DNA of 64,000 nucleotides, taken from Gemmatimonadota bacterium (GTDB lineage: Bacteria; Gemmatimonadota; Gemmatimonadetes; Longimicrobiales; RSA9). The position numbers and the translations under genes were made by a program. The notes under the pieces were generated by a model that was not told the DNA's origin, ran no database searches, and saw only the letters and a list, made by a program, of their open reading frames with translations. Positions 25,036-64,000 of the stretch are shown here, piece by piece. The stretch lies in the NCBI GenBank assembly GCA_040905425.1, contig JBBDRO010000103.1, positions 13,959 through 77,958 on the forward strand, given 5' to 3'. Numbering within the stretch: position 1 is the first letter of the stretch; each line of letters starts with the position of its first letter.

Positions 25036-25065
25036 GCCGAATCCCCGCAGGAAGGAACGAGACAT

Positions 25066-27799: not shown

Positions 27800-27833
27800 T
27801 GGGGAGCGGATGCCGACGCCTTGAGGTACGGTT

Positions 27834-28157: not shown

Positions 28158-28181
28158 CCGCCGCCGGAAGGTGATGAGGAC

Positions 28182-42873: not shown

Positions 42874-42897
42874 GGCCGCAGTCGGTCGGCCGATGAG

Positions 42898-43335
42898 ATG
42901 GCCGTAGATATCCGCTTGCGGGTGCTTTCGGACGCCCTGGCCGGCCAGGAAGTCACCAATCAGAGCGCTCCTGTGCCCATGGGTTGGGGTCAAGGACTGG
43001 AGCTGCGCTTCCATCCCGCCCGGGGCCTCGATCCGCCCGCCCGCCAGGCCACGGTGGCGTTGCTGCAAGATCGCTGGATTCTACAGAACCTGCGAAGTCG
43101 GAATGGCACGTTCGTGGCAAGCCGCCGCATCCGTAGACCCGAGACGCTCCAGCACGGGCAGCCTTCACTGGTCCCGAGGGCCCGGAGGTCGATGTCCAGC
43201 TGGCCGGCGTCGGCGTGGGCGCCGAATCCACGCGTGCCTTCTGTGCACCGGACGCTGCACCCGCCCCGGCTCCCACTCCCTCCATCGACTGCGCTCCCTC
43301 GGGCACAGCCGTTCTCCGGCGGGCCTGGCCGCTGA
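42898..43335 (+). CDS. FHA-domain protein, degenerate and probably disrupted
   Basis: FHA-like core: WILQNLRSRNGTFVASRRIRRPETLQHG. The pThr-binding GR and SxxH positions are replaced (MGWGQG, PARQAT). After about 43160 the more protein-like continuation (FTGPEGPEVDVQLAGV...) is in another frame, which ends at 43469 where the transposase remnant begins. Confidence 0.5.
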   Translation: MAVDIRLRVLSDALAGQEVTNQSAPVPMGWGQGLELRFHPARGLDPPARQATVALLQDRWILQNLRSRNGTFVASRRIRRPETLQHGQPSLVPRARRSMSSWPASAWAPNPRVPSVHRTLHPPRLPLPPSTALPRAQPFSGGPGR

Positions 43336-43459
43336 CGCATACCATGTGCGCCAGACCTAAGTGCCACTGTGCCGTTTGCCGAAGGGCAGGGGCATCCGCG
43401 CTGGCAGTTCGGGTGGCGACCTCCACGGAGCAGCAGCTGGGCGTGGAGCCCACACGCCG

Positions 43460-44020
43460 TTCGGCCTGATGTGCATCCAGATCATCGCTGCGGGCAGCGA
43501 TGTCTACCTGTTGGCCCACAACGCGCGGTTCGCGAAGCCAGCAACCAATGCGGCGGACCACCACCTGTCGCTCAACCCTGCTCTCAACCCGGACGACGTC
43601 TTCTGCTTCGGGCACAGGCGGACGGTCGCTAACGATTTCGTGGTACAATTCGAAAAGCGCGGCCTCCAACTCGATCGCAAGGCACGCGGCCGGGTCGCGG
43701 TATGTAGCCGGGTGCTGGTGCGGGAAACAGACGACGGCCGACTGCGGGCAATCTATCCATGCCCCGACGGGAGGGAGCACGAATGCACGTGGACACCAGC
43801 CGCACCCGAACGAAAACAGCGCCACCGCCGAAGCCGCCAGCTGCGGGCCCACGTAAACCGCCGCCCAAACCGCGGCAGATCACCCGTGGCGGCAAGCAGG
43901 CAGGATCGCTCTCGCCAAGCAAAGGCGCGTACGGTGCGGCCCCGACTGGCCTCACCCAGGCTCAACCCGAGTAGGGGACATTTCTATCCGTACTTGACAG
44001 CCGCCGCCGAACATGATTGA
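43460..44020 (+). mobile_element. truncated transposase remnant (C-terminal third of an rve/DDE-type, IS481/ISNCY-like transposase)
   Basis: YLLAHNARFAKPATNAADHHLSLNPALNPDDVFCFGHRRTVANDFVVQFEKRGLQLD...VLVRETDDGRLRAIY matches the remembered C-terminal pattern 'yN.RFa..P....daHrpl.....L..if......RtVsnD.vv.f.n..lQl'. The HTH and DDE catalytic parts are absent, and I found no inverted repeats. Confidence 0.55.
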
Positions 44021-44185
44021 CACTGCTGACACCTGAGGTGTACCATACTAGGGTCGACGCTCGTCCGTAGCACCACCGATACGCTCCAAAGCGTTCCAAC
44101 TATTCCCGGTGTCAGGAACATCCGATGATGGCTTTCCTCTCTGCTGCTCCAGCTACCGCTGGCCGCGACGGGTGCACCGCGGCTC

Positions 44186-46201: not shown

Positions 46202-46243
46202 GCTTGGCGCGACGATTCATTCATTTCTACACGGGGCCGTTCG

Positions 46244-49171: not shown

Positions 49172-50133
49172 TGCATCGCGCAGTTGTGATTGTTGCCGTG
49201 GTCGCTGCCGGCACCTTGACCGTGCCGGCCGAGGCGCAGTTTTCATCGGATATTCCCGGTGTTCCGCGTGCCTCCGTGCCGTTCCGTGGCAATCACCAGA
49301 ACCGTACGGAGTGGACGTTTGCTGGCTACAAGATCCCCGGTGCGGCAGACGTCGGCGATACGACGGCACTCGGCGTACGCGTGACCTTTGGCCGCAGCTA
49401 CCGAATCAGGAACGTGTTCGAGCTCGGTTTTGACATCTCGATCATCGATGGCCTCCTTGAACGGCCGCCGGAGGATACGTTACCCGGCGCCCCACCCGGG
49501 CCGGGCAGTTACATCCGCGGGTCCGGCTTCTACGGGCTACGCATTGGCGGCAAGTGGAGACCATTTTCCGCGCTCGACCTGGACGGCTATGGCTGGGAAG
49601 GCGCTATCGGCGCTGGGGTCCAGCCTTCACTTCGGCCGTTGATCGGTGCCGAGAGCTATGACGACAGCACGCGCTTCGGGGGCCAGTTCTCCGGTGAGGC
49701 GGAGCCCGGTCTGCGGGGCAGCGACCCGTTCGGCAGGATCCATATGGCCACCTTCTTATCTGGCATGGCGAGCTACAGGTCGCAGCGTATCCTGGCTGAT
49801 GTTGCGCTCGTCGCCGAAGCCGTCCGTGAGTCGGACGAAGCGGATGGACCGTCGCCGCTCGTGAAATTTGACGGTGTCTCGCCGCGCGGAGGTGTGATGT
49901 ACCGGCTCACACCTAGCCTGGCGCTCGGCGCGAGCTACTGGGGCAATGGCGCCCCGCCGTGGCGGGACCAGATCTCCGTGGGCGTTCCGGGCGCGGCGAA
50001 GGGAGAACACTACGGCTTTATAATGACGCTCGGTTCCCGGCCTGAGAGTGGCACCGATTTCATGGTGTCAACGCCGACCGGCGACTGGGGTCAGTCCGTG
50101 CGGCTCTACATACGGGGTCGCTCGACGCGCTGA
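49171..50133 (+). CDS. hypothetical secreted beta-rich protein (possible outer-membrane barrel)
   Basis: ATG 49171 overlaps the caspase stop (TGATG) and is preceded by GGGAGGA. Signal peptide VVIVAVVAAGTLTVPAEAQ. Alternating hydrophobic beta-strand-like segments, but no canonical C-terminal Phe. Confidence 0.55.
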   Translation: MHRAVVIVAVVAAGTLTVPAEAQFSSDIPGVPRASVPFRGNHQNRTEWTFAGYKIPGAADVGDTTALGVRVTFGRSYRIRNVFELGFDISIIDGLLERPPEDTLPGAPPGPGSYIRGSGFYGLRIGGKWRPFSALDLDGYGWEGAIGAGVQPSLRPLIGAESYDDSTRFGGQFSGEAEPGLRGSDPFGRIHMATFLSGMASYRSQRILADVALVAEAVRESDEADGPSPLVKFDGVSPRGGVMYRLTPSLALGASYWGNGAPPWRDQISVGVPGAAKGEHYGFIMTLGSRPESGTDFMVSTPTGDWGQSVRLYIRGRSTR

Positions 50134-50576: not shown

Positions 50577-51470
50577 ATGAAGGAGCCCCAGCACCTCACC
50601 ACCCTTTTTGCCGACGTCAGCGGCAGCACCCGCCTCTTCGAGCAGCGCGGTGACCACGAAGCCCGCCGCATCATCGCCGCCGTCCTCGAGGCGCTGACGG
50701 AAGTGGTGCAGGGCTACAGCGGGCGCGTGGTTAAGACCATCGGGGACGAAGTGATGTGCACCTTCCCCGGCCCCACCCAGGGTCTGCTGGCCGCCTGCGA
50801 CATGCAGCAGCGCGTGGCGCGCGAGCCGGATTTCGCCCGGGACGACATCGGCATCCGGGTAGGTTTGCATCACGGCGCCACGCTCGTCGAGGATGGGGAT
50901 ATCTATGGCGACTCCGTGAACACGGCGGCCCGCATGGCCGCCCTGGCCAAGCGCGAGCAGATCATCACCACCACGGCCACCCTGGAAGGCGTCACGTCCG
51001 GTGTACATCTGAGCGCCCGCGCCCTAGGCCAGGTGCGCGTCCGCGGCAAGCAGCTCCCCGTGGAGGTGGTCGACATCATCTGGCAGGAAGACACATCGGA
51101 GGTCACAACGGTCCAGCAGGTGGTGCGGGTGGGTGGCGAGCCTGCGGATCTCCAGCTGCGTCTCCGCCACAGGGACACGGAGATTATCTTCACGCAGGAC
51201 TCGGAGCCCCTCTCCATAGGCCGGGACGCCGGGAATTCATTGACAGTCCCCACGGAATTGGCCAGCCGGAACCACGCCGTGTTGGAATGCAGGGGAGCCT
51301 ACTTCGCGCTGGTGGACCGCAGCACCAACGCCACCTTTGTGCGCTTCGGGGACGACGAAGAGCTCCGGGTGCATCGGGAGGAGATCCGGCTCCGTGGGTC
51401 GGGAACCATCAGCCTAGGACAGGTCGCGAGAAGCAACCCGGCGGATTTGGTATATTTTGAGTGCGCATAG
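50577..51470 (+). CDS. class III adenylate/guanylate cyclase fused to a C-terminal FHA domain
   Basis: Cyclase motifs: LFADVSGSTRLFE, VKTIGDEVMCTF, GLHHGATLVEDGDIYGDSVNTAARM. FHA: LSIGRDAGNSLTVPTELASRNHAVLE...LVDRSTNATFV. Confidence 0.85.
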   Translation: MKEPQHLTTLFADVSGSTRLFEQRGDHEARRIIAAVLEALTEVVQGYSGRVVKTIGDEVMCTFPGPTQGLLAACDMQQRVAREPDFARDDIGIRVGLHHGATLVEDGDIYGDSVNTAARMAALAKREQIITTTATLEGVTSGVHLSARALGQVRVRGKQLPVEVVDIIWQEDTSEVTTVQQVVRVGGEPADLQLRLRHRDTEIIFTQDSEPLSIGRDAGNSLTVPTELASRNHAVLECRGAYFALVDRSTNATFVRFGDDEELRVHREEIRLRGSGTISLGQVARSNPADLVYFECA

Positions 51471-51891: not shown

Positions 51892-54243
51892 CTAGTCGAT
51901 GACTTCCACCACCACTGGACCCGACGCCCTGGCCATACACGCCAGTCGGCAGGCGCCCGGCTCCAGCCCCTTCCTCTTGAGGGTCTTGAGCTCCTTTTCG
52001 GCGGGCTCGCTCAGGTGCTCGGCGCCCTCCAGAATGCGAATGGCATCGCAGCCGCACATGCCGATCCAGCATTCGTAGTCGATGTCCACCTCATTCTCGT
52101 CGGCCCATTCGAGCAACGTCTGGTCCTCGGCCAGAGGCCCTGCCAGTTCCTGTCCCTGAAAGGTGACGTGTGGACCGCTGGCCACTGGCGCCGCCACGGC
52201 CGCGTGGCTCTGCTGCTGGACCGCGGCGGCCGGCGGTGGCTCGAGCTTGGCTGCCGGCGGAGGGGGCGGTGAGGAAGTGGGGGCTACTGGCGGCTCCAAT
52301 GCGGGCGGCGCCACTGCTGGCATCGAAGTGGTCTTCTCGGGAAGGTCCTCACGTAGCCGCACCTCCAGCTGCTGACCGCCGATGCGGAAGACATCCCGGT
52401 GCCCGAGCTGCCGCTCCCCCTCGATCTTCAGGTAGGTGCCGTTTCGGCTTCCGAAGTCGTGAAGCTGAATTTCTCCGTCCTCGACCGAGAGGGAGAAATG
52501 GAATCGGGAGAGGGTGTGGTCGTCGTTGTCCAGGAGCACGTCGGGGTCTGACTTGCCGCCTGATCGTCCGAAGACGGTGGTGTCCTTCAATAGATACACG
52601 GCCACCTGTCGCCCGCGCGCGTCATAGTGGACGAGCTCGGGCGGCGCTCCGCGCACCTGGCGGGAGACCACGAGGATCTGCTGTCCGGCCCGGATCAGGT
52701 CGCTATGGCGAACGCTCACGGCACGATCGGGGAGCACCTTCTGGTAGGTACCTGCCCGGCTGCCGTCGTCCCGGAGGAAGTAGCCGCTGTCCCTCCGGGT
52801 GAGGGAGGCGTGGGCCTCCGAGAGCAGCGTGTCGTGTGGAAAGGCCAGGTCCGTACCTGTGCGCCCCAATGTGGTCATGCCACGGGGGTTCAGCCGAAAC
52901 TCCTCGGCTTCAACGCCGGCGGGCGTCAGCAGAACCAGGTATGCGCCCTCCGCGGCAGCGGCTCCCGGCTCCGGAGTTACGTCCGCCTCCGCCGCGGCGT
53001 CCTCCTCGTCTCCCCGCAGGCCTAGGACACCGCTTACCCGGCCGTCCGAGGTAGTGTCGCCGGCGAGGGGCTCCGCGTCGCGAATCACCACATTCACCTC
53101 GGCGCGGCCCTCGAGGCGCTGGTTGATGACCTCCGCCACGAACACTCCGTCGCGCAGACCGCTCTTGATGTTGCCCCGGTGCTTGACCTGGCGGAAGGTG
53201 TCGGGCGACCCGGCGAAATCGTCCGTCTCCAGGTAAGACTGGCTCAGCAGGTCTCCGATCACGTAGACGTTCGGCTGCTGCGTCTCCAGCAGTGGCGTCA
53301 CCGCCATGGTCTTCTTTCCCTTGGTGCCACCCGCCACCATGTCGACGCCTATGGTCGAGAGGAGGGCCTCGGGAATGTCCTCGCCGATGCAAGCGATACA
53401 CTGTGTCTTTGCGAACTCCAGGTGAAGCGTTTCCGGCGGCCGACCTGCGGGCGTCTTCCGGTCCACCCGTAGCGACAACACCTCCGTGCGGTCGGGAGTC
53501 GTAACAACGGCTACGGGCTCGCTCTCGGGGAAGTGCCGGATGTTGCCGTTGCCGATGTAAGCTTCGAAGAACTGCTCGGCGAGTGCCTTGGAGACCCGCG
53601 GCATCTTGGTGCCACGGTACGCCCAGTAGACCGGGCACTCGTCACCCGCGCCCACCTTTGCCCTCGAGATGGCCAGGACCGCCTCGGCGGCCGACGTGCC
53701 GCCGCCAACCACCAGCACCGGGCCCTTGGCATAACGATCCGCCTCATCGAGCCGATAGGCAATCCCGTCGGTGTTGCCGGGGATGTCGAACCGCCGGGGG
53801 ACTCCCCGTCCCAGCGCCACCACCACGTGCCGGGCTCGGAAGGTCACCTGTTCGCTCGCCTTGTGGTCCCACGCCACCACGTTCCACAGGTCATCGGCAC
53901 GCTCCATGGCGGTTAGTTCCACGCCGGTCCGAAAGGGTACGCCGAACGCACCGTAAAGCGCCTTCCAGGAACTGCACATCTCATCCTTGTCAATGGGTCC
54001 GAACTGGAGCGCTGCTATCATCTTGCCACCGGCCGGAAACCGCATGCGGTCCCCACCGCCGAAACTGGGGAGGATTAGCTTGTCAGACGGATAGTCCCGG
54101 ATTCGCTTCAGGATGTCATCGAAATCGATGACCAGAACCTCGAGCCGCAATTCCCTGGCGCGGAAAGCCGCGGCGGTGCCTGCGGGTCCGCCGCCGATCA
54201 CCAGGACGTCCAGTATCTCGGTGCCGCCGTTGATGTTGCTCAT
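51892..54243 (-). CDS. FAD/NAD(P)-binding oxidoreductase - FHA - FHA - 2Fe-2S ferredoxin-like fusion protein
   Basis: Dinucleotide motifs VLVIGGGPAGTAAAF, VLVVGGGTSAAEA, NVYVIGDL. FHA1: TTLGRTGTDLAFPHDTLLSEAHASL...SRAGTY. FHA2: TVFGRSGG...LSRFHFSLSVEDGEIQLHDFGSRNGTY. Then a Pro/Ala linker. C-terminal Cys cluster YECWIGMCGCDAIRI...GACRLACMA. Confidence 0.8.
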   Translation of the reverse strand: MSNINGGTEILDVLVIGGGPAGTAAAFRARELRLEVLVIDFDDILKRIRDYPSDKLILPSFGGGDRMRFPAGGKMIAALQFGPIDKDEMCSSWKALYGAFGVPFRTGVELTAMERADDLWNVVAWDHKASEQVTFRARHVVVALGRGVPRRFDIPGNTDGIAYRLDEADRYAKGPVLVVGGGTSAAEAVLAISRAKVGAGDECPVYWAYRGTKMPRVSKALAEQFFEAYIGNGNIRHFPESEPVAVVTTPDRTEVLSLRVDRKTPAGRPPETLHLEFAKTQCIACIGEDIPEALLSTIGVDMVAGGTKGKKTMAVTPLLETQQPNVYVIGDLLSQSYLETDDFAGSPDTFRQVKHRGNIKSGLRDGVFVAEVINQRLEGRAEVNVVIRDAEPLAGDTTSDGRVSGVLGLRGDEEDAAAEADVTPEPGAAAAEGAYLVLLTPAGVEAEEFRLNPRGMTTLGRTGTDLAFPHDTLLSEAHASLTRRDSGYFLRDDGSRAGTYQKVLPDRAVSVRHSDLIRAGQQILVVSRQVRGAPPELVHYDARGRQVAVYLLKDTTVFGRSGGKSDPDVLLDNDDHTLSRFHFSLSVEDGEIQLHDFGSRNGTYLKIEGERQLGHRDVFRIGGQQLEVRLREDLPEKTTSMPAVAPPALEPPVAPTSSPPPPPAAKLEPPPAAAVQQQSHAAVAAPVASGPHVTFQGQELAGPLAEDQTLLEWADENEVDIDYECWIGMCGCDAIRILEGAEHLSEPAEKELKTLKRKGLEPGACRLACMARASGPVVVEVID

Positions 54244-55214
54244 TGCTGGTGCAGTCTGAACTCGAGGTGCGGACCCAGTAGAAAACTGGCGCCCGGCGTA
54301 AGGGCCGCAGTTTCAATGCGGCGGTCGCCTATAAACGTGCCGTTGCGGGCACCCAGGTCCACCAGCTGAACGCCGTGCGCGCCCACGCGTACGATCGCGT
54401 GTTTGCGGGACAGCCACATGTCGGGATCCTCGATGCGGATATCGGCGTCAGAGCCCCGGCCGATGACGTTGTCACCCGGTGCGAGCGGAAACTGGAGAGG
54501 TCCGCCCGTGGGCAACAACACCACCAGTTCGTAGGCGGGCACGGCAGGCGCGACCCGGGTGGCGTCCTCACCACCGGGGGGCGCTGGCTTGGGCGCTCGG
54601 TGATCCACCGGCGGCGCAGGCGTCTTGCCGAGGTCGGGGAGCACGCCAAACCCGGCCATGTCCACGACAGTGTGCTGATTCCCGAGCGGAGCAGCGGGGG
54701 ATGGCTGCGCGGCCGCATCCGGCTCCTCCGGGCGGTTAGCGCCGCCCGCTGAGCCATTGCCCTCCGCCGGATCTTCCACACCCGGCGCAGGCGGCCCGAG
54801 ATCCGGCAGCGCCCCGAAGCCCATCATGTCCACCACCGTGTGCTCCGCGTCGGCTAACGCCTCGGGCGGCGAGGTGTCCGGTGGCGGAGAATCGGGCGGC
54901 CGGCGTACCATGCTGCGACTGAACACGAACTCCTGTCCGGCCACCTCGATGACATGCATCCGCTCCAGCGCCGCGCTGCTGCGGAGCGGCTGCCCGTCCA
55001 CCTGAGCGCTTCCACCTGCGGCCTCCTCCATCACGAAGCCCCCCTCCACGTGCCGGATGCGTGCGTGCACGGCGGCCAGGTCCGCGTCCTGTCCCACCGC
55101 TGGCCTGCCCGCCCCATCCACACCGAGGGCGGTGTTCCCAGCCAGTTCGAAGGTCGATCCAGCCAGCGCTCCTGTACGGCAGACCAGGCGTGCTGTGGGC
55201 GTCAGTGAAGTCAT
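54240..55214 (-). CDS. tandem FHA-domain protein
   Basis: The C-terminal FHA is canonical (NVIGRGSDADIRIEDPDMWLSRKHAIVRV...LGARNGTFI). The N-terminal FHA-like domain is degenerate (AAVHARIRHVEGGFVMEE). A Pro/Ala-rich linker carries a near-duplicated 'HTVVDM.GFG.LPDLG..PAP' segment. The stop overlaps the next start (ATGA). Confidence 0.8.
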   Translation of the reverse strand: MTSLTPTARLVCRTGALAGSTFELAGNTALGVDGAGRPAVGQDADLAAVHARIRHVEGGFVMEEAAGGSAQVDGQPLRSSAALERMHVIEVAGQEFVFSRSMVRRPPDSPPPDTSPPEALADAEHTVVDMMGFGALPDLGPPAPGVEDPAEGNGSAGGANRPEEPDAAAQPSPAAPLGNQHTVVDMAGFGVLPDLGKTPAPPVDHRAPKPAPPGGEDATRVAPAVPAYELVVLLPTGGPLQFPLAPGDNVIGRGSDADIRIEDPDMWLSRKHAIVRVGAHGVQLVDLGARNGTFIGDRRIETAALTPGASFLLGPHLEFRLHQQ

Positions 55215-55227
55215 GGCTACCTGGGGC

Positions 55228-56793
55228 TCAGCGGGACAGGGTGGACCAGTGCGACTTGTCCGGATGGAACTGATGACAGGACGTGCAGCTGGCGGGCGCA
55301 GTCCTGCTGCCGTGACACGAGCGGCAGCTCTCGATGGTGGGGAGATTCACGACCTCCGCCCGGTCCTGAGCAGCCGTTGCGTCCTCCCCCGACAAAAGCA
55401 GCTCGCGCGTGGGAATTACGTCGTGGCAGTCCATGCAGCGGGCGTGCACAACGTGCGCCCGGTGATCGAATTCCGCGCGCGCCAGACCGCCGTGGGCCGG
55501 TTGTTGCACGCGCCTGATGGTGGCGCGCTCCACCACGTGGCACTGGACGCACGGCTCGATGATGGCGCTGATGACGGCCTCGTATGCCGCTACGTCCATC
55601 GTCCCGGTAGCCACCCCGTCGGCCTCGTCGGCGGGGCCCACTCCGAAACGTGTGGCGTCCAGCGGCGCGTAGGGATCCTCCAGGCGGGCCTCCACGGCGG
55701 CCAGCAACTCCGACAGTTCGGCGATCTCGCGCTGCACCGCCGGCGAGGGATCGCCCCGCAGGCCCTCGATCTGCCTCGCCAGGGTGGCGATTGCCTCCCG
55801 GTGCAGCGCGCGGACCTGATCGGGCGGCACCTCCGCCGAGGTGTCCAGGAGGTCAGCCAGCTCAGCGCCCGGGTAGAGGTCGCCGCGCAACTTCCGGAGG
55901 TTGTGGAGGATCCACGGGTCGGCGTGGTAGACCGGCCGCTTCACCACGGAACCACCCAGATCGGTGAACTCACCGGCGTTCCAGAAGTATGCCCACTGGC
56001 TCCCGGGCTCACCGGCGCTGCGGATGTCACCCAACGTGGCAACGCCAGGGCCGCTGCCGGAGGCCACCCGGGCGGGCTCCGTGGCGTCGCTCCGAGAGAG
56101 ATGGCAGGCATCACAGTGCCGGTCGAAGGCCAGGGGCTGAAAGCCCTTCCCGTCCGCCTCAGGCGTGTGGCAGCTCAGGCACGCCGCCTCGGGCTCCACC
56201 AGTTCGCTTTCCGCCATCACCTCTCGCACGTGCTGCACGTGGGCGAATTTCAGATTGGCCACGCCCGCGTTGTCCTCCACGGCAAAATCGAATTCCGGGT
56301 GGTCCTTTTCAAAGGAATTCACCTCGTGGCAGGATACGCACCGGGCATCGGCCACTTCCTGCAGGGAGGCCTCTCTGCCCTGGTGCTCACGGTGACAGGT
56401 GCCGCAAGCCACCTCGTGGACATCGGCAGCCGAACGGTCCGCCTCCCCGGAGCGGTACATATAGTGGCGCGCGAACGTGTAGATCCCGAGCTCGCCGCCG
56501 GACTGCTGATGACAGCTCAGGCATTTGGCGTCGGCCGTGCCTTGAAGCGGCGTGTGGCAAGCGGCGCAGTCCCCGTCGAAGATAGCGTGACTGTCCGTGA
56601 GCGGCGCGCCGGCAATGGCCGTCCCCCGGCCCAGGAAAGCGCTGGCGAGCAGGAGCACGGCCAGGACGAGGCCAGCCAGCCCTCCGCATGCAAAGAGACG
56701 GCTGCGGCTCGTGAGCCGCGTGTACCGGTCCGCCACCGGGAGTCGGTGTGGCGAGAAGAATCCCTTCTCGAAGCGACGATCTTCCGAGCCCAC
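55228..56793 (-). CDS. membrane-anchored decaheme c-type cytochrome
   Basis: Ten CxxCH motifs read in the translation: CAACH, CLSCH, CGTCH, CVSCH, CLSCH, CDACH, then CVQCH, CMDCH, CRSCH, CTSCH. N-terminal TM/signal anchor LAGLVLAVLLLASAFL. GTG start 15 nt after the upstream stop. Confidence 0.85.
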   Translation of the reverse strand: MGSEDRRFEKGFFSPHRLPVADRYTRLTSRSRLFACGGLAGLVLAVLLLASAFLGRGTAIAGAPLTDSHAIFDGDCAACHTPLQGTADAKCLSCHQQSGGELGIYTFARHYMYRSGEADRSAADVHEVACGTCHREHQGREASLQEVADARCVSCHEVNSFEKDHPEFDFAVEDNAGVANLKFAHVQHVREVMAESELVEPEAACLSCHTPEADGKGFQPLAFDRHCDACHLSRSDATEPARVASGSGPGVATLGDIRSAGEPGSQWAYFWNAGEFTDLGGSVVKRPVYHADPWILHNLRKLRGDLYPGAELADLLDTSAEVPPDQVRALHREAIATLARQIEGLRGDPSPAVQREIAELSELLAAVEARLEDPYAPLDATRFGVGPADEADGVATGTMDVAAYEAVISAIIEPCVQCHVVERATIRRVQQPAHGGLARAEFDHRAHVVHARCMDCHDVIPTRELLLSGEDATAAQDRAEVVNLPTIESCRSCHGSRTAPASCTSCHQFHPDKSHWSTLSR

Positions 56794-56808: not shown

Positions 56809-57651
56809 CTAGAAGTAGAGAATGAAGAACACGTGCAGCACCACCAACGCCAGCAGCGCCACAGCCGCGGGCAGGTGGAGCACGAGCCAGCCGCGCAGCA
56901 CGCGCTGCAGCGTATAGTGGACGTCCATCTCGTGCTTGGTGACGCGCAGCCCCTGCACCTCGTCCACCACCGCCGCGTCTTCCGCCTCCAGGGTGCACTT
57001 GAGCAGCTCGACTTCCCGTGTGCCGCGCAGGTGGGCGGCGGGGCTCCGGAACAGTTCACGATAGGTGACCCGCGGCCCCGCCATCACCGGCGCCACGCGC
57101 TTCTGGAACCAGCTTCGCACGCGTGGGTCTGATTCCGCCACCTTGGCCTCCGCGCGGGCGCGCAACTCGTCGACCAGACCGGGGATCCGCTCCAGGTGGA
57201 CCTCGAACGAGGAGGTGGTGTTCAGCACCTGCGGAACTGCCCGCTGCAGAAAGAGGCCCACCGCACCCGTCAGGACCACCCAGAGGCTCAGCAGCCAGAG
57301 CCCCGCCACCATTCCGCCCGAGGGCAGCCCGAAACCGGTGTGGTAGAGGAAGAGCAGGAAAAACAGGGTGCCCCCCCACAGGTGTACCTGCAAGTACGTC
57401 CGCGTGGGGCCGAGGCGCCGCACGGCGGGCATGGCGCGGCGGGCCGAGTAGAGCATTACTGCCAGGAGCGACAGCGCCGCCGCCACGCCGAGCCCGAGCC
57501 CGAGCGGGGAACTGGGTGCCACACCACCGGTGGCCATGCCTACCATGAATGCCACTGTAGCAGCAACGGCACCCAGGGTACTGAGCAGGGGAACAGGCCC
57601 GGAACGCACCACGCCTCCGGCACCGCGCAGGCGCTGAACCAGAGCCGTCAT
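56809..57651 (-). CDS. integral membrane protein with two His-N13-His pairs (candidate di-heme b transmembrane electron carrier)
   Basis: ATG 57651 overlaps the upstream stop (ATGA). About 5 TM helices. H90/H104 lie in YLQVHLWGGTLFFLLFLYHTG, and H260/H274 in WLVLHLPAAVALLALVVLHVFF. A soluble segment of about 115 aa sits between TM4 and TM5. The function is inference only. Confidence 0.6.
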   Translation of the reverse strand: MTALVQRLRGAGGVVRSGPVPLLSTLGAVAATVAFMVGMATGGVAPSSPLGLGLGVAAALSLLAVMLYSARRAMPAVRRLGPTRTYLQVHLWGGTLFFLLFLYHTGFGLPSGGMVAGLWLLSLWVVLTGAVGLFLQRAVPQVLNTTSSFEVHLERIPGLVDELRARAEAKVAESDPRVRSWFQKRVAPVMAGPRVTYRELFRSPAAHLRGTREVELLKCTLEAEDAAVVDEVQGLRVTKHEMDVHYTLQRVLRGWLVLHLPAAVALLALVVLHVFFILYF

Positions 57652-59246
57652 ACCGGCATCTCCGCTGCACGCTTCGCCTGCCGCAGTAGGTCGAACTCTT
57701 CGGTGCCGGAAACGCGGTGCGCGGCGCTGTGCGGGCAGCTGGCCACGCAGGCCGGTCCCTCCGGCGCCTGGTAGCAAAGATCGCACTTGCTGGCCACCGC
57801 CCGGGGCTGCCCACGCAAATAGCTGGGCACCGCATCGGGGCCCCACGAGGTGTCCAGGTCGTGCATGACGATGGAATCATACGGGCAGTTCTGCTCGCAG
57901 GCGCCGCAACCGATGCAGATGGCGGGATCGATTTCCACCACCGCACCCACGTTCAGCCGGCGGATGGCGCCCGTGGGGCACCCCACCAGGCACGTGGGAT
58001 CCTGACAGTGATAGCAGGAGCGGGCCACCATGAAGCCGTCGTAGACCTCACCTTCGCGCACGAACCGAGGGCGGCCGCCATGGGTGCTGGCGCACCCGCG
58101 CACGCAATCGTCGCAGCGGGTGCAGGCCTCGAGGTCAATGACCAGCACACTGTTCGCCTGCGCAATGCCCTTGGCGAGCGTGAAGTCGAGCAGATCCGAA
58201 CGGGCCAGGTCAGAGCGGGTGGCACCCATGATCTTGATCCGCTCCATGGCAGTGCCCCACAGGCGTTGCTCCAGTTCCGGCTGCGCGGCCAGGGCGTCCA
58301 GGAAGGCGTCCCGGCCGATGCGGACCAGCTCCGAGTTGCCTACTGAGGAGGCGCTCACCTGCCACACGCCGGAGCCGTCCACCATGAGTTCGGACTCCCC
58401 GAGCGAATCACCCTTGCTGAGGTACGATACGGCTACCTCGGCGGCGCCCAGCGCCTGTGAGAGCCGCAGGCAACCGGAGCGTACCAGGACGAAGTGCTCC
58501 GTGGGCTCGCCCTCCCGGACGGCCACCTCCCCCGGCTCGCACGACACCAGTTCGGCCGCGGCCACCAGCCGCTCAAGCGTTTCCGGCGTGCAGCCGTGCA
58601 GCAGCGGGGTGCCGGCCAGGTGCTGTCGCAGCATGCGGGCCTTGTAGAGCTCGTCCAGCCGTATCCGGAGCGCGCGTGATTTACGGCGCAGCTTGCGGAG
58701 CGCGGGCAGGCGGATCTGCAGTAGCGTACAGGCGCTCGCCGTGCGGGCGGTGGCGGATTGCGGCCAACCGTTCATGGCGCCGATCTCGCCAAACAGTTCG
58801 CCAGGTCCCAAGCGCATGCACTCGTCCGCAGCCACGTCGAAGTCCATGGACGCCAGCATCACCGTTCCGCCGCTATGGCTCTCCCGATCGGCTTCGTAGG
58901 GGGCTTCACCCGCCACCGCGCCTGCGCCGCTTCCGAAGATGGGCTGAACCGCGCTCTCCGGGCGCGCCAGGAAGACCTCCACTTCGCCGCTCACCACCAG
59001 GAATGCCAGGTCCAGGTAGCTGCCCTGCTCGAAGATCACCGCCCCCGCGTTCCACTCCGCCAGCGATAGGTCGGGGCTCAACTCCTTCAGGAGGTCGTCA
59101 TCGAATTCCTGCAAGATGCCGATCTTTTTGAGCTGCGCGGGGGTGGGCAGGCTGGAGATGCTACGGATCCCTGTGTGCTCGCCGAAGGAGGACCAGCGGT
59201 CGCCGTGCTGGCGACTCATCATGACCAGGGTCCCTGATGCTTCCAT
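57648..59246 (-). CDS. two cyclic-nucleotide-binding domains fused to a 4x[4Fe-4S] DmsB/NrfC-like ferredoxin
   Basis: cNMP-binding 1: GAVIFEQGSYLDLAFLVVSGEVEV...GELFGEIGAMNGWPQSATARTA. cNMP-binding 2: GEVAVREGEPTEHFVLVRSGCLRL...GDSLGESELM. Four Cys clusters: CTRCDDCVRGC, CYHCQDPTCLVGCP, CIGCGACEQNCP, CDLCYQAPEGPACVASCP. No twin-arginine or signal sequence. Confidence 0.85.
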   Translation of the reverse strand: MEASGTLVMMSRQHGDRWSSFGEHTGIRSISSLPTPAQLKKIGILQEFDDDLLKELSPDLSLAEWNAGAVIFEQGSYLDLAFLVVSGEVEVFLARPESAVQPIFGSGAGAVAGEAPYEADRESHSGGTVMLASMDFDVAADECMRLGPGELFGEIGAMNGWPQSATARTASACTLLQIRLPALRKLRRKSRALRIRLDELYKARMLRQHLAGTPLLHGCTPETLERLVAAAELVSCEPGEVAVREGEPTEHFVLVRSGCLRLSQALGAAEVAVSYLSKGDSLGESELMVDGSGVWQVSASSVGNSELVRIGRDAFLDALAAQPELEQRLWGTAMERIKIMGATRSDLARSDLLDFTLAKGIAQANSVLVIDLEACTRCDDCVRGCASTHGGRPRFVREGEVYDGFMVARSCYHCQDPTCLVGCPTGAIRRLNVGAVVEIDPAICIGCGACEQNCPYDSIVMHDLDTSWGPDAVPSYLRGQPRAVASKCDLCYQAPEGPACVASCPHSAAHRVSGTEEFDLLRQAKRAAEMPV

Positions 59247-59258: not shown

Positions 59259-61334
59259 TCAATTGCCGCGGCCGATAGCCGCGTAGATGCGCTCCAGGCG
59301 CTGCTTCACCAGGAGCAGGACTTCCTCGGGTGTCATGGAGCCCGGCGCAACGTCAATCGGCTCCAGATCCAGGCTGCCGGATACGGTGCGTGCCGGTGCC
59401 ATCCCCGGCATAGGGGGCGGCGCCGCAAAACCGGCGCTCCCTCCGGTCGACCCGCCCGGGCTGCTGCCCACCGCGGTGAGAGGACGGCTCGGCGGCAGCG
59501 GCTCCACCACCTCCACCTGAGGTATGGGCCGGTCGGCCACGGCGCTCGTGAACGCCGCATTCAGCGCTCCCTCGGCCACCTCCGGATACGCGGCCCCGCG
59601 TTTCCCCCGCTCCAACTGCGGCTTCTTGCCTGGCCAGTGGGCTATGCTCCGATTGGCGGTGCCGATGTCATAGCCGCTACCCGAGGGGTGTCCGGCCGCG
59701 AGCAGCCGCTCATCACTGACGTGGTGACAGCCCGCGCACGTCCGTGCGCGCTCGTCAGCCTTCTTGAGGGCACGCATTCCCGCCTGTGGATTGCCCCCCT
59801 CCTGGTGCGGCTCCAGGAAGGCGGCGCCCGCGCCGTGGCAGCTCTCGCAGCTGACACCCGGCTCCACCACTCGCATGGACCGCTCATCCACGGTACCGTG
59901 GCAGCTCATGCAGATCTGATCCCCCCGCCCCATGGCGGCCGGGCCGATGCCGTACAACGTGGCGATCTTCCGTGCTCGAGGATCGTCGCCGAGGAGGCGG
60001 CGGCCAGTCTGCTGATGGGGGTCCCCGTACCACCACTCCTCCGCTTCGCCATGGCAGGAGGCGCACTCGCCGACGCCCACGGTGCCGTTCTGCGCTGGGC
60101 TGTGCCACGCCGGCTGGCGCCGGATCTCTCCCGGCATGTCGGGCGGCGGAGTGACCGCTGGGGGGCTGGCGCCCGGGGCTGCTGGCGCGGTCCCCCCGTC
60201 ACCCCCTGGCCCGGCGCTGGGTTCCACGGTGGTGCCGCTGCCCACCGAGCCGGTGGCCGCGGCCACCGGCGCAACAACGGGCGCTCCCGCGATCACCGTA
60301 TCCAGCACCGCCAGGACCGCCGCGTCCGCGGAGCGCGCGAACTGCTGCCCTATTCCACGAATCCTCTCCGCCGCGGTCTCCAGCTCCGCCCGGTTGCTGG
60401 CCACCAGGCGCAGGTCCTTCCCGGTTCTCAGCACCTCCTCCACAGCCGGCACGGAAGCGACGGTCGCCACCTCCTCCAGCGCCCGATACGCACCCTGCGC
60501 CGCGCGTTCCATGGATCGCGCGTAGCGCCCCTCCGCGGTGGCGCCTGCCAGGCCACGGAGCGCGTATTCGTACGCCAGGATCCGACCGGTGACGAACATC
60601 ATGCGATTTCGCTCGGGGGTGAGTTCCCGGTTCACACCCTCGGTGCCGTGCAGGAAGTTGTGCCGGACCTGCTCCACCCTGGCCACCAGGTCGAAGTCCG
60701 TGGTGCCCGTCCGGTGTTCACCGCGGTTGACAAGCTCTTCTTGCGGCACGGTGTGGCATTCAAAACAGTTGGCCACCACGGCGTAGATGTCCGCCGACGG
60801 CGGCAGCATGCCCTCCGCCGCGGCGGCGGCGATGCGCTGTTCCCTGGCCGCGGCCGATTCGTCGCCGCTGGACGGCAGCTTATTGTGGACATTCAGCCAT
60901 CCCTGGGCCGGGCCATGGCACGACTCGCACGAAACGCCGGCGACCGCCTTCCGGTCCGGCCCGACCGTGTAGTGGCACCGCATGCAGACCGCTTCCTGGC
61001 GCTTCGTGACCCGCAGGTTCATGCGCTGCAGAATGGCCTTTGCGTTCTCGTCCTTGTGCAGCGTCTCGTACCCCTGCGCGTGCTTCGTCTCCTGCCAGAC
61101 CTCCCATTCGTCAGTATGGCAGACGCCGCACGGCTCGTAGCCCTTGGCGTTCTCCACCACTACGCGGTCGGGATCGATGCGGAGGAAGGGCGAGTCGGAA
61201 AAGTCGGCCGGCTCCTGGGCCAGCAGGGCGTACGCCCCGGCCAGTCCAAGCGTGCCGAGCCCCGCCAGCCCGGCGGCGAGCCGGCGGCGGGGCTGGCGCA
61301 ATTGCCGGTAGCGGAACGACTTCAACGGTGGCAT
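59259..61334 (-). CDS. octaheme c-type cytochrome (two tetraheme modules)
   Basis: Signal/anchor LAGLGTLGLAGAYALLAQ. CxxCH x8: CGVCH, CMRCH, CESCH, CFECH, then CASCH, CMSCH, CESCH, CAGCH. The two halves are visibly paralogous. Confidence 0.85.
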   Translation of the reverse strand: MPPLKSFRYRQLRQPRRRLAAGLAGLGTLGLAGAYALLAQEPADFSDSPFLRIDPDRVVVENAKGYEPCGVCHTDEWEVWQETKHAQGYETLHKDENAKAILQRMNLRVTKRQEAVCMRCHYTVGPDRKAVAGVSCESCHGPAQGWLNVHNKLPSSGDESAAAREQRIAAAAAEGMLPPSADIYAVVANCFECHTVPQEELVNRGEHRTGTTDFDLVARVEQVRHNFLHGTEGVNRELTPERNRMMFVTGRILAYEYALRGLAGATAEGRYARSMERAAQGAYRALEEVATVASVPAVEEVLRTGKDLRLVASNRAELETAAERIRGIGQQFARSADAAVLAVLDTVIAGAPVVAPVAAATGSVGSGTTVEPSAGPGGDGGTAPAAPGASPPAVTPPPDMPGEIRRQPAWHSPAQNGTVGVGECASCHGEAEEWWYGDPHQQTGRRLLGDDPRARKIATLYGIGPAAMGRGDQICMSCHGTVDERSMRVVEPGVSCESCHGAGAAFLEPHQEGGNPQAGMRALKKADERARTCAGCHHVSDERLLAAGHPSGSGYDIGTANRSIAHWPGKKPQLERGKRGAAYPEVAEGALNAAFTSAVADRPIPQVEVVEPLPPSRPLTAVGSSPGGSTGGSAGFAAPPPMPGMAPARTVSGSLDLEPIDVAPGSMTPEEVLLLVKQRLERIYAAIGRGN

Positions 61335-61367: not shown

Positions 61368-62876
61368 CTAGAACTTGTGCCGGAGTTCGAGCCGGACGCC
61401 GCTGATGGTCCCCAGATCTTTGCGATGGCCGTACATGCCGTCGGCCCGCAGGATAATGGCGTTGGTCAGCGTACGCTGCGCCCGCACGCCGAACGCTACC
61501 TGTTCGCCTGGCAGTCCGGGGCTTTCCACGAGCGGATAGCTGCCCGCCACTTCCACCACGAGTTGCCGGTCGAAGCTGGAGCCGAGCAGGTTCAGGCCGA
61601 GCGCTCCACCTACCGCGTCCTGCGCGGTCGCGGTCAGCGCGGGGAGCGCCGTGACCGCATCCGGTTCGAAGCTGAGTCCGGTGTTGCGGAGGACGCCGCC
61701 TGCTCCCGGATCCCGGGCCGCGGAGACAGGCCGGTCGAACCCGGCGAAGAGGTTCAGGTACGGTACCACCGTGGAGGGTCGCGAGGTGATGAGGGAGTTC
61801 TCCAGCAGCAACAGGTGCCCGCCGGGGGCAAGCGCACTGCCTGCGCTGACGGCGCCGACGTAGCGCAAGGAATTGGAGATGAACGTGCCGTAGCGCTTCG
61901 AAAAGGAGACGGCATAGGAGTGGTAGGACTGATCGGCCTCGGAGTCGTCACCCACGTAGGCGTACCCCGCCTCCACATAGCCACCGTAAGCCTCGATAAA
62001 CGCGTTCACGCCCGCCAGCTGACCCGTCTCCCCGATTGCCGGAGAGGCGCCATGGGACACCTTGTCGAAGCCGACGAAGAAGCTGATGTCGTAGTTCGAC
62101 CAGTCGAGCGCCGCCGAGTTGCGGGCTGGAATCGTGAACGCGGCGCCGGTGAAGGCGTCTTCGAGCCAGGTCCCGTTGTGGAAGACCAGAGGCATGAGCC
62201 CCGCTGCCACCGGCAGGTCGAAGGGTGCCGCCCGGCCAGCGAGTCCGCCGACGATGGCGCCCAGGTCTCCCTCGAAGAAGAGCGCCACCGGGATGGCCGA
62301 GAAGTTCTGGTCGAATGTGCTCGTGTCCGCGGCGAAATCGAAGCGGGTCAGGACACCGTCGTTCTCCAGCGGCCGGAATGTGGCATGGATACGCTCGGTT
62401 GCCGTGAGCTTCAGATCCACGTCCAGGTTCAGACGCGCCGCCACCGTCCCGCCCTCGTCGTCATCCACGCTATTGAAGCCGCTGGCCGCCCGCAGGTCAC
62501 CGTATAACAGGAGCTGCGGGATCAGCAGGTTCGTGCCGCCCAGCGGGGTCCCGCCCCGCCGCAGCGGCCCTGCGCCGTACATGTCGCTGCCGAGTTCCAG
62601 CAGCGGCCGCTGGGTGGGATTCAGGTGCTTGGCTCCGTAGATGTCGAGCTGCGCCTGATAGTCGTACATGGTGTCGCTGTAGACCGGATCGGGCCCGAAG
62701 GCTTCAGCCGTATGCGGCACCACACGCACCCGCGGGTCCGTCTGCTGGGCGGTGGCATCGCCGGCCAGCAGGACGCTGGCCACCGCCATTGCGCCCAGCG
62801 GAATCGACCGGCCGTTGCGCGTCGACGTGCGGGTCGCGGCCCCAGCCCGTGCCTGGGAGGAGAGTTGGCTTGTCAT
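61368..62876 (-). CDS. outer-membrane porin-like beta-barrel protein
   Basis: ATG 62876 overlaps the upstream stop (TGATG). Signal peptide GAMAVASVLLAGDATAQ. Long alternating-polarity beta-strand pattern rich in Gly and aromatics. C-terminal ...GVRLELRHKF (terminal Phe, an OMP signature). Confidence 0.7.
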   Translation of the reverse strand: MTSQLSSQARAGAATRTSTRNGRSIPLGAMAVASVLLAGDATAQQTDPRVRVVPHTAEAFGPDPVYSDTMYDYQAQLDIYGAKHLNPTQRPLLELGSDMYGAGPLRRGGTPLGGTNLLIPQLLLYGDLRAASGFNSVDDDEGGTVAARLNLDVDLKLTATERIHATFRPLENDGVLTRFDFAADTSTFDQNFSAIPVALFFEGDLGAIVGGLAGRAAPFDLPVAAGLMPLVFHNGTWLEDAFTGAAFTIPARNSAALDWSNYDISFFVGFDKVSHGASPAIGETGQLAGVNAFIEAYGGYVEAGYAYVGDDSEADQSYHSYAVSFSKRYGTFISNSLRYVGAVSAGSALAPGGHLLLLENSLITSRPSTVVPYLNLFAGFDRPVSAARDPGAGGVLRNTGLSFEPDAVTALPALTATAQDAVGGALGLNLLGSSFDRQLVVEVAGSYPLVESPGLPGEQVAFGVRAQRTLTNAIILRADGMYGHRKDLGTISGVRLELRHKF

Positions 62877-64000
62877 CAGCGGACCTCGAACTCGACGGTG
62901 TACGGATGGATGTCCAGCATCCACTCGTTCATGGCTCGCTCCATCTCCTCCGTGGCGCCCACGAACTTCATGAAGTAGATGGGCTCGGCGCGGCTGCGAA
63001 GGCGCACCGCCAGCCGGTAGGTACCGGGCCTGGTGAGCAGGTCGCCCGGAACGGTGTACGTTGCGTCACGACTGGAAAGCGGCGGCAGCGAGCGGCTCTC
63101 CATGCGCACGCCCGGCGGATGGTTCAGCACCGAAACCGGTTGGCCCGCCGGGCGGATGAACGGGAGCTGATCCACGTCCAGGTTGATGGGCAGATACATC
63201 TCGCGGTCGGTACCCTTGACGTTCTGGGTGAGGAACTTCGTCTGCAGATTGAAGAGCTGGTCGTCGTGCGGGATACGGCCCGCCAGCACGTCCAGGGAAT
63301 GCAGGTCCGCCATGTCGCCGTTGCTGTCCAGGTAACCCGACTCCCAGATCCGCTGTCCGTCAGGGTCGATTAGCGCCACATTCAGCCACAGTTCCGGCTG
63401 CGCGCCCAGGGAGCCGGAGGGAAGGTTGTGCCCCGAGTTGGTGTTGGTAAGCGTGTAATGGAACTTCAGCGCCCCCCCGCGCCGGGGGTCACCGCTGAAG
63501 AACGGTCCGTCCAGCTTCGAACCGTTCTCCATCACCTGCCGGCGCAGTTCCCGCTTTTCCTCCAGCTTGGCCAGGTTCTGCTGGACGATGTCGCGGGCCT
63601 CGTAGCGGTCGTCCGGCTCGGCCCACATCTCGGGGAAGTTCACCTGCACCTGCCCGCCGGCCAGTCGGTCCTCGAACGCGTCCGTACCCCATCCCGCACG
63701 GAAATCGAAGCGCAGCCACTCGTCGATGGTCCAGCGCTCCGCGGCCGGATTGTGGGGAAAGACACCCGGATGCGCGCTGGCGTAACCGGGCCCGTAGAAG
63801 GTGTGGTTCGTGTGCTTCCGGGTCGGGTTGATGGGGACCCCCGCAAGCACCGCCGACGGCGCAGTCGCGTAGCCGTCCGGCTGCCCCGGCGTCTGGCCCA
63901 TGTGGCAGTCCTGGCAAGAGATCCCCGCGTCGGCGGCAGGGGAGGCCCGGTACTGGTCCCAGACCACCTCCAGCTTGATGCCGGGGTGCACTGCTACCTG
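62876..64000 (-). CDS. multiheme-cytochrome family protein, 5' end outside the window (C-terminal 374 aa seen)
   Basis: The frame stays open to the window edge; the listed GTG 63991 is not a real start. One CxxCH is visible (ISCQDCHMG). A large heme-free C-terminal domain follows (TNTNSGHNLPSGSLGAQPELWLNVALIDPDGQRIWESGY...). Confidence 0.7.
   Translation of the reverse strand, partial: QVAVHPGIKLEVVWDQYRASPAADAGISCQDCHMGQTPGQPDGYATAPSAVLAGVPINPTRKHTNHTFYGPGYASAHPGVFPHNPAAERWTIDEWLRFDFRAGWGTDAFEDRLAGGQVQVNFPEMWAEPDDRYEARDIVQQNLAKLEEKRELRRQVMENGSKLDGPFFSGDPRRGGALKFHYTLTNTNSGHNLPSGSLGAQPELWLNVALIDPDGQRIWESGYLDSNGDMADLHSLDVLAGRIPHDDQLFNLQTKFLTQNVKGTDREMYLPINLDVDQLPFIRPAGQPVSVLNHPPGVRMESRSLPPLSSRDATYTVPGDLLTRPGTYRLAVRLRSRAEPIYFMKFVGATEEMERAMNEWMLDIHPYTVEFEVR

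Follow-up and report, generated by a model that had tools for sequence, protein, structure and literature searches.

Arg-less cyclic-nucleotide-binding domains fused to a four-motif ferredoxin: a candidate gated electron-entry subunit in a Ptd-like multihaem cluster of Gemmatimonadota

In the 64,000-nucleotide stretch of Gemmatimonadota DNA analysed here (the window, in whose numbering positions are given unless another locus is named), a minus-strand gene encodes a PtdE-like protein, so called after the published ptdABCDEFG operon, in which two cyclic-nucleotide-binding (CNB) domains precede a ferredoxin domain with four Cys motifs. In both CNB domains the phosphate-binding cassette lacks the Arg that clamps the phosphate of a bound cyclic nucleotide. 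Our favoured reading, to which we assign a probability of roughly one half, is that this protein (the target) would be the cytoplasmic electron-entry subunit of a regulated conduit from NAD(P)H to the periplasm or the outside, equipped with a re-specified sensor; in this genome the electrons would probably pass across the outer membrane too. The evidence lies in the domain content, the conservation of Cys and His residues, synteny, gene fusions and a dichotomy between cassette type and gene context. The gene and its parts are as follows (aa, amino acids; AF2, AlphaFold2; pLDDT, predicted local distance difference test; PKA-R, regulatory subunit of protein kinase A).

57648-59246, minus strand: target gene, PtdE-like protein of 532 aa; open reading frame (ORF) with an ATG start, Pfam cNMP_binding and Fer4 matches
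58692-59129, minus strand: CNB domain A (aa ~40-185), split at aa ~95-135 by a disordered insert; aligns to PKA-R and to a CRP-like protein in the PDB, AF2 pLDDT
58746-58793, minus strand: phosphate-binding cassette A (aa 152-167), FGEIGAMNGWPQSATA; Gln163 at the canonical Arg position
58227-58634, minus strand: CNB domain B (aa ~205-340); best Pfam stretch 234-320, AF2 pLDDT ~90
58344-58403, minus strand: cassette B (aa 282-301), LGESELMVDGSGVWQVSASS; Gly-Glu kept, no Arg
57711-58154, minus strand: HycB-like ferredoxin domain (aa 365-512), four Cys motifs with 16 Cys; matches to PDB 7qv7 and 7z0s

The ORF has a G+C content at third codon positions of 0.84, typical of coding sequence in the window. 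Pfam cNMP_binding matches its product at 102 bits (E 1.7e-29, cut-off 27.5) in three stretches that correspond to two domains, the first being split by the disordered insert, with the signatures FGEIGA at aa 152-157 and LGESEL at aa 282-287. In the AF2 model (overall pLDDT 75.5), domain A lies above 90 outside the insert and at about 30 within it, and a Foldseek search with the model returned the tandem CNB domains of PKA/PKG regulatory subunits (E 1e-18). An earlier note on this DNA, made from the sequence alone, had described two CNB beta-barrels with FGE and GES signatures followed by four complete Cys motifs, an architecture that profile hidden Markov model (HMM) parsing confirmed. It had also seen no signal for export, and we agree: at the N-terminus (MEASGTLVMMSRQHGDRWSSFGEH...) neither a twin-arginine motif nor a hydrophobic signal of the Sec or twin-arginine translocation (Tat) type was seen. 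In the AF2 model the final CNB helix (aa 323-358) runs directly into the ferredoxin domain; it is at a helix of this kind that ligand-induced movement in CNB domains is usually transmitted.

Alignment with HMMER places cassette A, FGEIGAMNGWPQSATA, over FGELALMYGTPRAAS of PKA-R, its PQSAT opposite the PRAAS or PRAAT of PKA-R, with Gln163 falling on the phosphate-clamping Arg. The Ser-Ala-Thr part of this cassette is canonical, and the Gly-Glu pairs that contact the ribose 2'-OH (G153-E154 and G283-E284) are invariant or near-invariant. The motif GWPQS is near-invariant in the clade, including both W161 and Q163, and among 74 homologues conservation reaches at least 90% at 14 of the 16 cassette A positions as compared with a mean column identity of 58%. 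That the cassette is so much more conserved than the protein as a whole suggests a working, rather than a decaying, site. In domain B the Arg-equivalent position is variable among relatives. When we scored the cassette across 258 relatives by their identity to the window protein, all of those at least 50% identical carried Q163 with two exceptions (one E, one M), as did 7 of the 10 aligned at 40-49% identity, Q reaching down to relatives 45% identical, whereas relatives at 30-37% mostly have the canonical P-R-S-A-T-V; intermediate subclades have V, H or A in place of the Arg.

Replacement of this Arg in PKA, CRP, HCN or MloK1 lowers the affinity for cyclic nucleotide monophosphates (cNMPs) by orders of magnitude. 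Since the pocket is conserved but the clamping Arg has gone in both domains, we expect the proteins of this clade to bind a ligand other than high-affinity cyclic AMP (cAMP) or cyclic GMP (cGMP), for example an uncharged nucleoside-like molecule, or else to bind cNMPs much more weakly; either option would be expected to act together with phospho-signalling through Ser/Thr kinases and FHA domains. The earlier note had counted failure at the HMM threshold or lack of the phosphate-binding cassette among the findings that would speak against its proposal; the threshold is passed, but with the Arg missing from both cassettes the second of these goes against it. Its general idea of a signalling domain carried by an electron wire holds up for the superfamily, where canonical PRSATV cassettes occur with cyclase and phosphodiesterase-like genes nearby, but its proposal of control by cAMP or cGMP is not supported for this protein. 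Proteins of the Arg-less clade are probably mislabelled when they are annotated automatically as 'cyclic nucleotide-binding domain-containing protein'.

Two further regions of the target deserve mention. The insert in CNB domain A (58842-58964, minus strand, aa ~95-135) is 34-70 aa long, variable in sequence and absent from homologue P0047; it is a possible candidate for a regulatory phosphorylation site. In the N-terminal region (aa 1-24, 59175-59246, minus strand), D16-R17-W18-S19 is near-invariant in the family, and an 'RWD' motif occurs in distant relatives with a canonical Arg (R-type). Thr6 is kept in 52 of 65 aligned sequences and could, speculatively, be an FHA-binding phospho-site.

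The 16 Cys of the ferredoxin domain fall into four groups, C375-x2-C-x2-C-x3-C385, C411-x2-C-x4-C-x3-C423-P, C444-x2-C-x2-C-x3-C454-P and C488-x2-C-x8-C-x3-C504-P, and all 16 are invariant in alignments of 20 and of 74 homologues and in more distant relatives as well. Several Fer4 families of Pfam score above cut-off, among them the DmsB-type Fer4_11 at 3.1e-8. The closest solved sequences are HycB3 (PDB 7qv7, 7.7e-19) and HycB (PDB 7z0s, 2.8e-15), together with HycB4; HycB3 and HycB4 belong to hydrogen-dependent CO2 reductase and HycB to formate hydrogenlyase, and all are cytoplasmic. No named NCBIfam equivalog comes near its cut-off, the scores being 51.9 against 214 bits for DmsB, 49.8 against 263 for HybA and 45.9 against 260 for HydN. 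The assignment to a DmsB/NrfC/HybA type in the earlier note is not supported, as the domain is nearer to HycB/HydN than to the Tat-exported proteins; a periplasmic DmsB/NrfC-type subunit is ruled out by the absence of a Tat signal, and sequence features support a cytoplasmic location.

Directly downstream of the target lies the gene of its presumptive membrane partner.

56809-57651, minus strand: PtdF-like membrane protein of 280 aa with five predicted transmembrane (TM) helices; ATGA overlap with the target

The stop codon of the target and the start codon of this gene share the ATGA. In the membrane protein, H90/H104 and H259/H273, each pair spaced H-x13-H, lie in predicted helices 83-105 and 223-279. 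None of the four His varies, either among 20/20 close homologues or among 123/123 partners drawn from every subclade. The AF2 model is all-helical (pLDDT 83.6). Sub-threshold Pfam matches were obtained to Ferric_reduct in 10 of 20 members, DUF4405 in 9 and Ni_hydr_CYTB in 2, families that we take to be di-haem membrane proteins, and the partner is very likely a di-haem cytochrome b as predicted from these features. Positive-inside loops put its N-terminus in the cytoplasm, which agrees with two natural fusions in which the ferredoxin C-terminus continues into the membrane protein (P0121, 828 aa, 1e-43; P0127, 771 aa, 5e-26). In most loci the partner gene is adjacent and on the same strand. Fusion in some species, the shared ATGA and adjacency in nearly all loci together argue that the two proteins form a physical complex. 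With multihaem cytochromes flanking the pair, this context strongly supports the role of electron wire that the earlier note had suggested.

The same evidence bears on the idea that the target is a variant CRP/FNR-type transcription factor whose Fe-S clusters would sense redox state or oxygen. Its weaker sequence matches do include CRP, DNR and other Crp/Fnr regulators, but the Pfam scan detected no helix-turn-helix family, the C-terminal 170 aa are a four-cluster ferredoxin, and translation of the gene is coupled to that of a membrane protein gene, with which it is fused in some species. The idea is effectively refuted by domain content.

The target belongs to an eight-gene minus-strand operon whose genes are spaced by 12-15 bases or overlap. 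In the order pentahaem, porin-like, octahaem, target, 5-TM partner, decahaem, FHA protein and flavoprotein, its other members are as follows.

62876-64000, minus strand: pentahaem c552-like cytochrome (PtdA-like), 3' part, cut by the window end; last haem motif CQDCH in the window
61368-62876, minus strand: porin-like outer-membrane protein (PtdB-like), with a signal peptide and the C-terminus ...LELRHKF, between two multihaem genes
59259-61334, minus strand: octahaem c-type cytochrome (PtdD-like) with a signal peptide; 8 CxxCH, Cytochrome_C554 at 1.2e-21
55228-56793, minus strand: decahaem c-type cytochrome (PtdG-like) with an N-terminal membrane anchor or signal; 10 CxxCH, Pfam cytochrome families
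54240-55214, minus strand: FHA-domain protein of 324 aa; FHA at 5.6e-14
51892-54243, minus strand: thioredoxin-reductase-like flavoprotein with Pyr_redox_2, two FHA domains and a C-terminal [2Fe-2S] ferredoxin (Pfam)

Full-length orthologues of the truncated pentahaem protein have 5 CxxCH and match cytochrome c552 (PDB 5ZE8) at 2.7e-13. The porin-like protein has neither a Pfam match nor a PDB sequence match, and we infer its beta-barrel from the features listed. In the octahaem protein the haem motifs at aa 69/117/136/190 and 424/475/496/533 are separated by an Ala/Pro/Gly-rich linker, which looks like an internal duplication of a tetrahaem unit; some relatives (L082, L073) have a single 4-haem version instead. 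The Pyr_redox_2-FHA-[2Fe-2S] protein is a candidate electron donor to the target.

An exhaustive search at E<=1e-30 gave 644 clusters of relatives (50% identity), and a relative is encoded in at least 565 species genomes, the system being widespread in Gemmatimonadota, Rhodothermales/Bacteroidota, Ignavibacteria, Acidobacteriota and other phyla. The operon order recurs in the first two homologue contigs examined and across 80 loci (one-genome-per-species data) from Gemmatimonadota, Rhodothermales/Salinibacter, Ignavibacteria, other Bacteroidota, Acidobacteriota, KSB1, Zixibacteria, Calditrichia, Nitrospirota, Deltaproteobacteria and Planctomycetes. We compared the neighbours of Arg-less sister loci (Q-type) with those of distant loci carrying the canonical Arg (R-type), using iterated profile searches on six-frame ORFs of loci with enough flanking sequence. 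Counts of FHA, Pyr_redox_2, NuoF-like, cyclase and decahaem genes refer to loci with at least 6 kb downstream of the target (47 Q, 45 R), and those of kinase, PP2C and porin-like genes to loci with at least 5 kb on both flanks (39 Q, 26 R).

FHA protein near the target: Q-type 42/47, R-type 2/45
Pyr_redox_2 flavoprotein near the target: Q-type 39/47, R-type 8/45
NuoF-like (Complex1_51K) module near the target: Q-type 0/47, R-type 39/45
Cyclase near the target: Q-type 1/47, R-type 12/45
Decahaem near the target: Q-type 45/47, R-type 45/45
Ser/Thr kinase within 10 kb: Q-type 23/39, R-type 0/26
PP2C: Q-type 5/39, there inside the operon, R-type 0/26
Porin-like protein: Q-type 26/39, R-type 0/26

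The loci are phylogenetically clustered, and the differences between Q- and R-type (Fisher p of 4e-18 for FHA, 7e-4 for cyclase and 2e-7 for kinase) are therefore clade-level contrasts. The octahaem gene is present in 39/39 sister loci. As to how often this architecture sits beside multihaem cytochromes, a survey that the earlier note had proposed, such cytochromes flank the pair of target and membrane genes in 39/39 sister loci and 25-26/26 distant loci. Searches by tblastn and by single phmmer with the window cyclase proved too insensitive, and cyclases were found by iterated jackhmmer with the catalytic domain alone; a jackhmmer search with the full-length cyclase of R-type locus L085 drifted onto FHA proteins and was discarded, though Pfam finds no FHA domain in that cyclase.

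Individual loci and proteins add to this picture. In L085 the cyclase lies inside the operon, together with an NDH-2-like flavoprotein that has its own C-terminal cNMP_binding domain and an Apyc1/metallo-beta-lactamase-type gene (L085:15483-17120 and L085:17176-17629), the latter of which may encode a cyclic-nucleotide phosphodiesterase; at R-type locus L083, genes for a GGDEF-cyclase and for a protein resembling class II phosphodiesterases are present. Other Arg-less subclades have multi-FHA proteins, and kinases directly after the decahaem gene, and homologue P0160 has an FHA domain inserted between its CNB and ferredoxin parts. The enrichment of FHA and kinase genes in Q-type loci, the P0160 fusion and the FHA and kinase genes of the other Arg-less subclades together point to regulation through phospho-threonine.

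Next to the operon in the window are the following signalling genes.

50577-51470, plus strand: class III cyclase ending in an FHA domain, its gene divergent from the operon; Guanylate_cyc at 4.1e-17, FHA at 1.3e-8
44186-46201, plus strand: Ser/Thr protein kinase, Pkinase and DUF4384; Pkinase at 1.2e-50
41884-42873, plus strand: PP2C-type protein phosphatase; PP2C_2 at 6.9e-11

The cyclase scores 62.8 bits against the Guanylate_cyc cut-off of 21.9. Its closest structure is the adenylyl cyclase Ma1120, and inspection of the alignment, which includes FADV..., VKTIGD and DIYGDSVNTAARM, shows the metal Asp, the Lys/Asp pair, the Asn and the Arg to be all present. The earlier note had placed a class III cyclase about 6 kb from the target; the gene is there, at 6.2 kb, but as a conserved partner it fails, a cyclase being near only 1/47 sister loci when FHA proteins are near 42/47.

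Two other accounts of the sensor have to be weighed. In one, which is that of the earlier note, the neighbouring cyclase-FHA protein would supply cAMP or cGMP to the CNB domains, and binding would switch electron flow directly. Both domains pass the cNMP_binding HMM with Gly-Glu kept and the Ser-Ala-Thr of cassette A canonical, the cyclase has all its catalytic residues and, like the operon, features an FHA domain, and canonical-cassette relatives have a cyclase nearby in 12/45 loci; phosphodiesterase-like genes accompany both R-type loci that were inspected gene by gene (L083 and L085). On the other hand, the cassette Arg is absent from both domains clade-wide, its loss costs cNMP affinity dearly in characterised proteins, and a cyclase lies near only 1 of the 47 sister loci. 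We regard this account as unlikely for the target, where it keeps a low probability because an active-looking cyclase adjoins the operon, and as more plausible for the canonical-Arg relatives. The other account, to which we give a small but real chance, is that the CNB domains bind no small molecule at all and form a scaffold, dimerisation or docking module, regulation being wholly through Ser/Thr phosphorylation read by FHA proteins. Several subclades have lost the Arg, with Q, V, H or A taking its place, FHA and kinase genes were gained in exactly those Arg-less clades, and the Arg-equivalent position of domain B is variable; the strict conservation of cassette A, with its W161 and Q163, is what suggests a working site instead.

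Under our favoured reading of a gated entry subunit, NAD(P)H would reduce the flavoprotein-FHA-[2Fe-2S] fusion, from which electrons would run through four [4Fe-4S] clusters of the target to two b haems in the 5-TM partner, H90/H259 holding the haem on the cytoplasmic side and H104/H273 that on the periplasmic side. They would then pass to the membrane-anchored decahaem and on to the octahaem cytochrome, and could leave through the porin-like protein and the pentahaem c552-like cytochrome. We propose that the tandem CNB module would gate the wire allosterically, by controlling its docking to the donor or to the membrane subunit. We infer input from NAD(P)H through interchangeable flavoprotein modules because different NAD(P)H-type modules occur in the same clusters, namely Pyr_redox_2-FHA-Fer2, NuoF-like, the NDH-2-like protein of L085, and the fusions P0132 and P0151, in which an N-terminal Fer2_4 and a NuoG-like Fer4_Nqo3 are joined to the protein. 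Export of electrons would dissipate membrane potential as well as reducing power, and this would account for the heavy regulation of the entry subunit.

Two alternatives to this route concern the membrane step. The ferredoxin and di-haem-b pair might instead resemble NarH/NarI or FdnH/FdnI and form a regulated NAD(P)H:quinone or quinol:ferredoxin link. A four-cluster subunit on a five-helix di-haem-b anchor is indeed the Nar/Fdn layout, and the predicted topology fits; however, neither NarI nor FdnI resembles the membrane protein in sequence, a quinone site is not recognisable, and the gene that follows it encodes the membrane-anchored decahaem in 45/47 and 45/45 loci, and we think such a link improbable. 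Electrons might also flow inward and reduce cytoplasmic ferredoxin or NAD(P)+, with Fe(II), a cathode or another donor in the periplasm or outside the cell as their source; the porin-cytochrome systems of iron oxidisers do run in this direction, and NuoF-like modules can operate either way. To enter low-potential clusters, however, electrons would have to move against the redox gradient as well as the membrane potential, and the operon has no energy-coupling subunit, so that outward flow is favoured and uptake appears very unlikely.

Several points weigh against the conduit with a re-specified sensor. An apparently active adenylyl cyclase with an FHA domain adjoins this very operon, and a Gln is still able to hydrogen-bond phosphate. 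The membrane partner has no Pfam family above threshold, and its best Foldseek hit against the PDB has an E-value of 0.46; the porin was assigned solely by features of its sequence and by synteny. Since the operons of the H- and A-type clusters examined lack a flavoprotein gene, the donor is not universal. The contrast between Q- and R-type loci represents a few clades, not many independent events, and its p-values overstate the evidence. Cofactors, partner contacts, direction of flow, ligand and gating are all deductions from sequence.

A broader proposal is more tentative still, and we consider it possible but less than probable: that the system is a quinone-independent route of export from NAD(P)H to the outside, in which a sensor on the Fe-S wire gates the flow post-translationally, and that its input was swapped from a cyclic nucleotide in the canonical clades to another ligand plus kinase/FHA signalling in the Arg-less ones. 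To our knowledge, extracellular electron-transfer systems are controlled mainly at the level of expression and take their electrons from the quinone pool. If the proposal is true, respiratory or overflow electron flow would come under direct, fast control at a sensor-bearing entry subunit with phospho-threonine readers around it. Hundreds of species carry the system, most of them uncultured, in soils, sediments and saline waters, and its activity could affect the cycling of metals and redox processes. A natural experiment on the re-specification of the cyclic-nucleotide-binding fold is also offered by the division into canonical-Arg and Arg-less proteins.

Among the remaining genes of the window, the signalling group at 40714-50133 (plus strand) adjoins the operon and has a G+C content of 0.63-0.65, below that of the rest of the window. 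Besides the kinase and phosphatase, it comprises partial kinase ORFs at 40714-41340 and 41498-41971, a 975-aa caspase-domain/PD40 protein at 46244-49171 and an outer-membrane-protein-like gene at 49129-50133, all on the plus strand. Further away are a GAF-GGDEF diguanylate cyclase (14135-16324, minus strand) and a small GAF protein (6468-6947, plus strand). The region 10985-13363 has a G+C content of 0.76-0.77 and long ORFs on both strands, of 793 aa on the minus and 391 aa on the plus strand, the former without a Pfam match. A Suf operon for Fe-S assembly (SufC, SufB, SufD and a SufS-type aminotransferase; 24226-29426, plus strand) lies ~28 kb from the conduit operon and is probably a coincidental housekeeping neighbour. 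In other genomes, divergent from the H- and A-type clusters, are giant multihaem proteins of 1181-1325 aa with LVIVD repeats (L166:274-4251 and L167:3487-7032), whose genes adjoin those of unannotated proteins of ~580-600 aa.

The architecture and the type of cluster have already been noticed and named, and the system is real, conserved and uncharacterised. The ptdABCDEFG operon was named in Alphaproteobacteria of marine oxygen-deficient zones, with further clusters reported in Gammaproteobacteria, Nitrospirales and Planctomycetes, and its authors state that its function 'remains completely unknown' (2024 preprint, bioRxiv 10.1101/2023.11.21.568154). In that description PtdA is a pentahaem protein with a beta-sandwich that matches the cytochrome c552 entry 5ZE8, PtdB a porin, PtdC a FAD/NAD(P) oxidoreductase of flavohaemoprotein-like type, PtdD a tetrahaem protein, PtdE a CNB/4Fe-4S protein, PtdF a ferric-reductase-like membrane protein and PtdG a decahaem protein (10.1101/2023.11.21.568154). 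Beyond this one preprint we found no characterisation of the system in the literature searched; a 2026 preprint that deals with extracellular electron transfer in peat is silent on these domains.

Likened by way of the published description, the window cluster is similar to Ptd in composition and order, and orthologues of its PtdA-like protein also match 5ZE8. There are clear differences. Published PtdE is reported to have two 4Fe-4S clusters whereas the window protein has four motifs, the tetrahaem PtdD is replaced by an octahaem with two groups of four CxxCH, and PtdC lies between the porin and the tetrahaem, where the window has no gene; in its stead the Pyr_redox_2-FHA-[2Fe-2S] fusion stands at the operon end. 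The window also adds an FHA protein and kinase and PP2C genes. The window version is thus a distinct variant, marked by Arg-less cassettes, coupling to FHA and kinase genes and a different flavoprotein donor.

Parts of the system have parallels elsewhere. HycB, HydN and HycB3 (7z0s, 7qv7) include the best matches to aa 365-525 and share the four Cys groups, cytoplasmic location and lack of a signal peptide, but they have no sensor domain and serve hydrogenase or formate dehydrogenase modules. NarH-NarI and FdnH-FdnI likewise dock a four-cluster Fe-S subunit on a di-haem-b anchor, and Tmc and Hmc link a periplasmic multihaem cytochrome to a cytoplasmic Fe-S protein; these systems differ in having membrane subunits of dissimilar sequence and no sensor domains, and the window system has no molybdoenzyme or HdrD-like subunit. 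Eukaryotic NOX and ferric reductases are alike in concept, leading electrons from NAD(P)H through flavin and two b haems to an outside acceptor under tight post-translational control, and the membrane partner has weak similarity to Ferric_reduct, below the Pfam threshold; here, by contrast, the subunits are separate, an Fe-S wire is inserted and multihaem c cytochromes lie downstream.

For the sensor, PKA and PKG regulatory subunits share the tandem two-barrel fold and the Gly-Glu of the cassette, but the target lacks the cassette Arg in both domains, and its output is an Fe-S wire rather than a kinase-inhibitor segment. Closer in this respect are the cAMP-independent PKA regulatory subunits of trypanosomatids, which are among the structural matches of the target (PDB 6flo, 6hyi, 6hyq, 6h4g). 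Their CNB tandems have no cassette Arg and are nevertheless regulated by ligand, and a T318R-containing mutant was made to bind cAMP; the entry titles show crystals with inosine or guanosine and a mutant containing T318R. These proteins are eukaryotic kinase regulators with other replacement residues, and serve as a precedent only, for an Arg-less CNB tandem that answers to a ligand.

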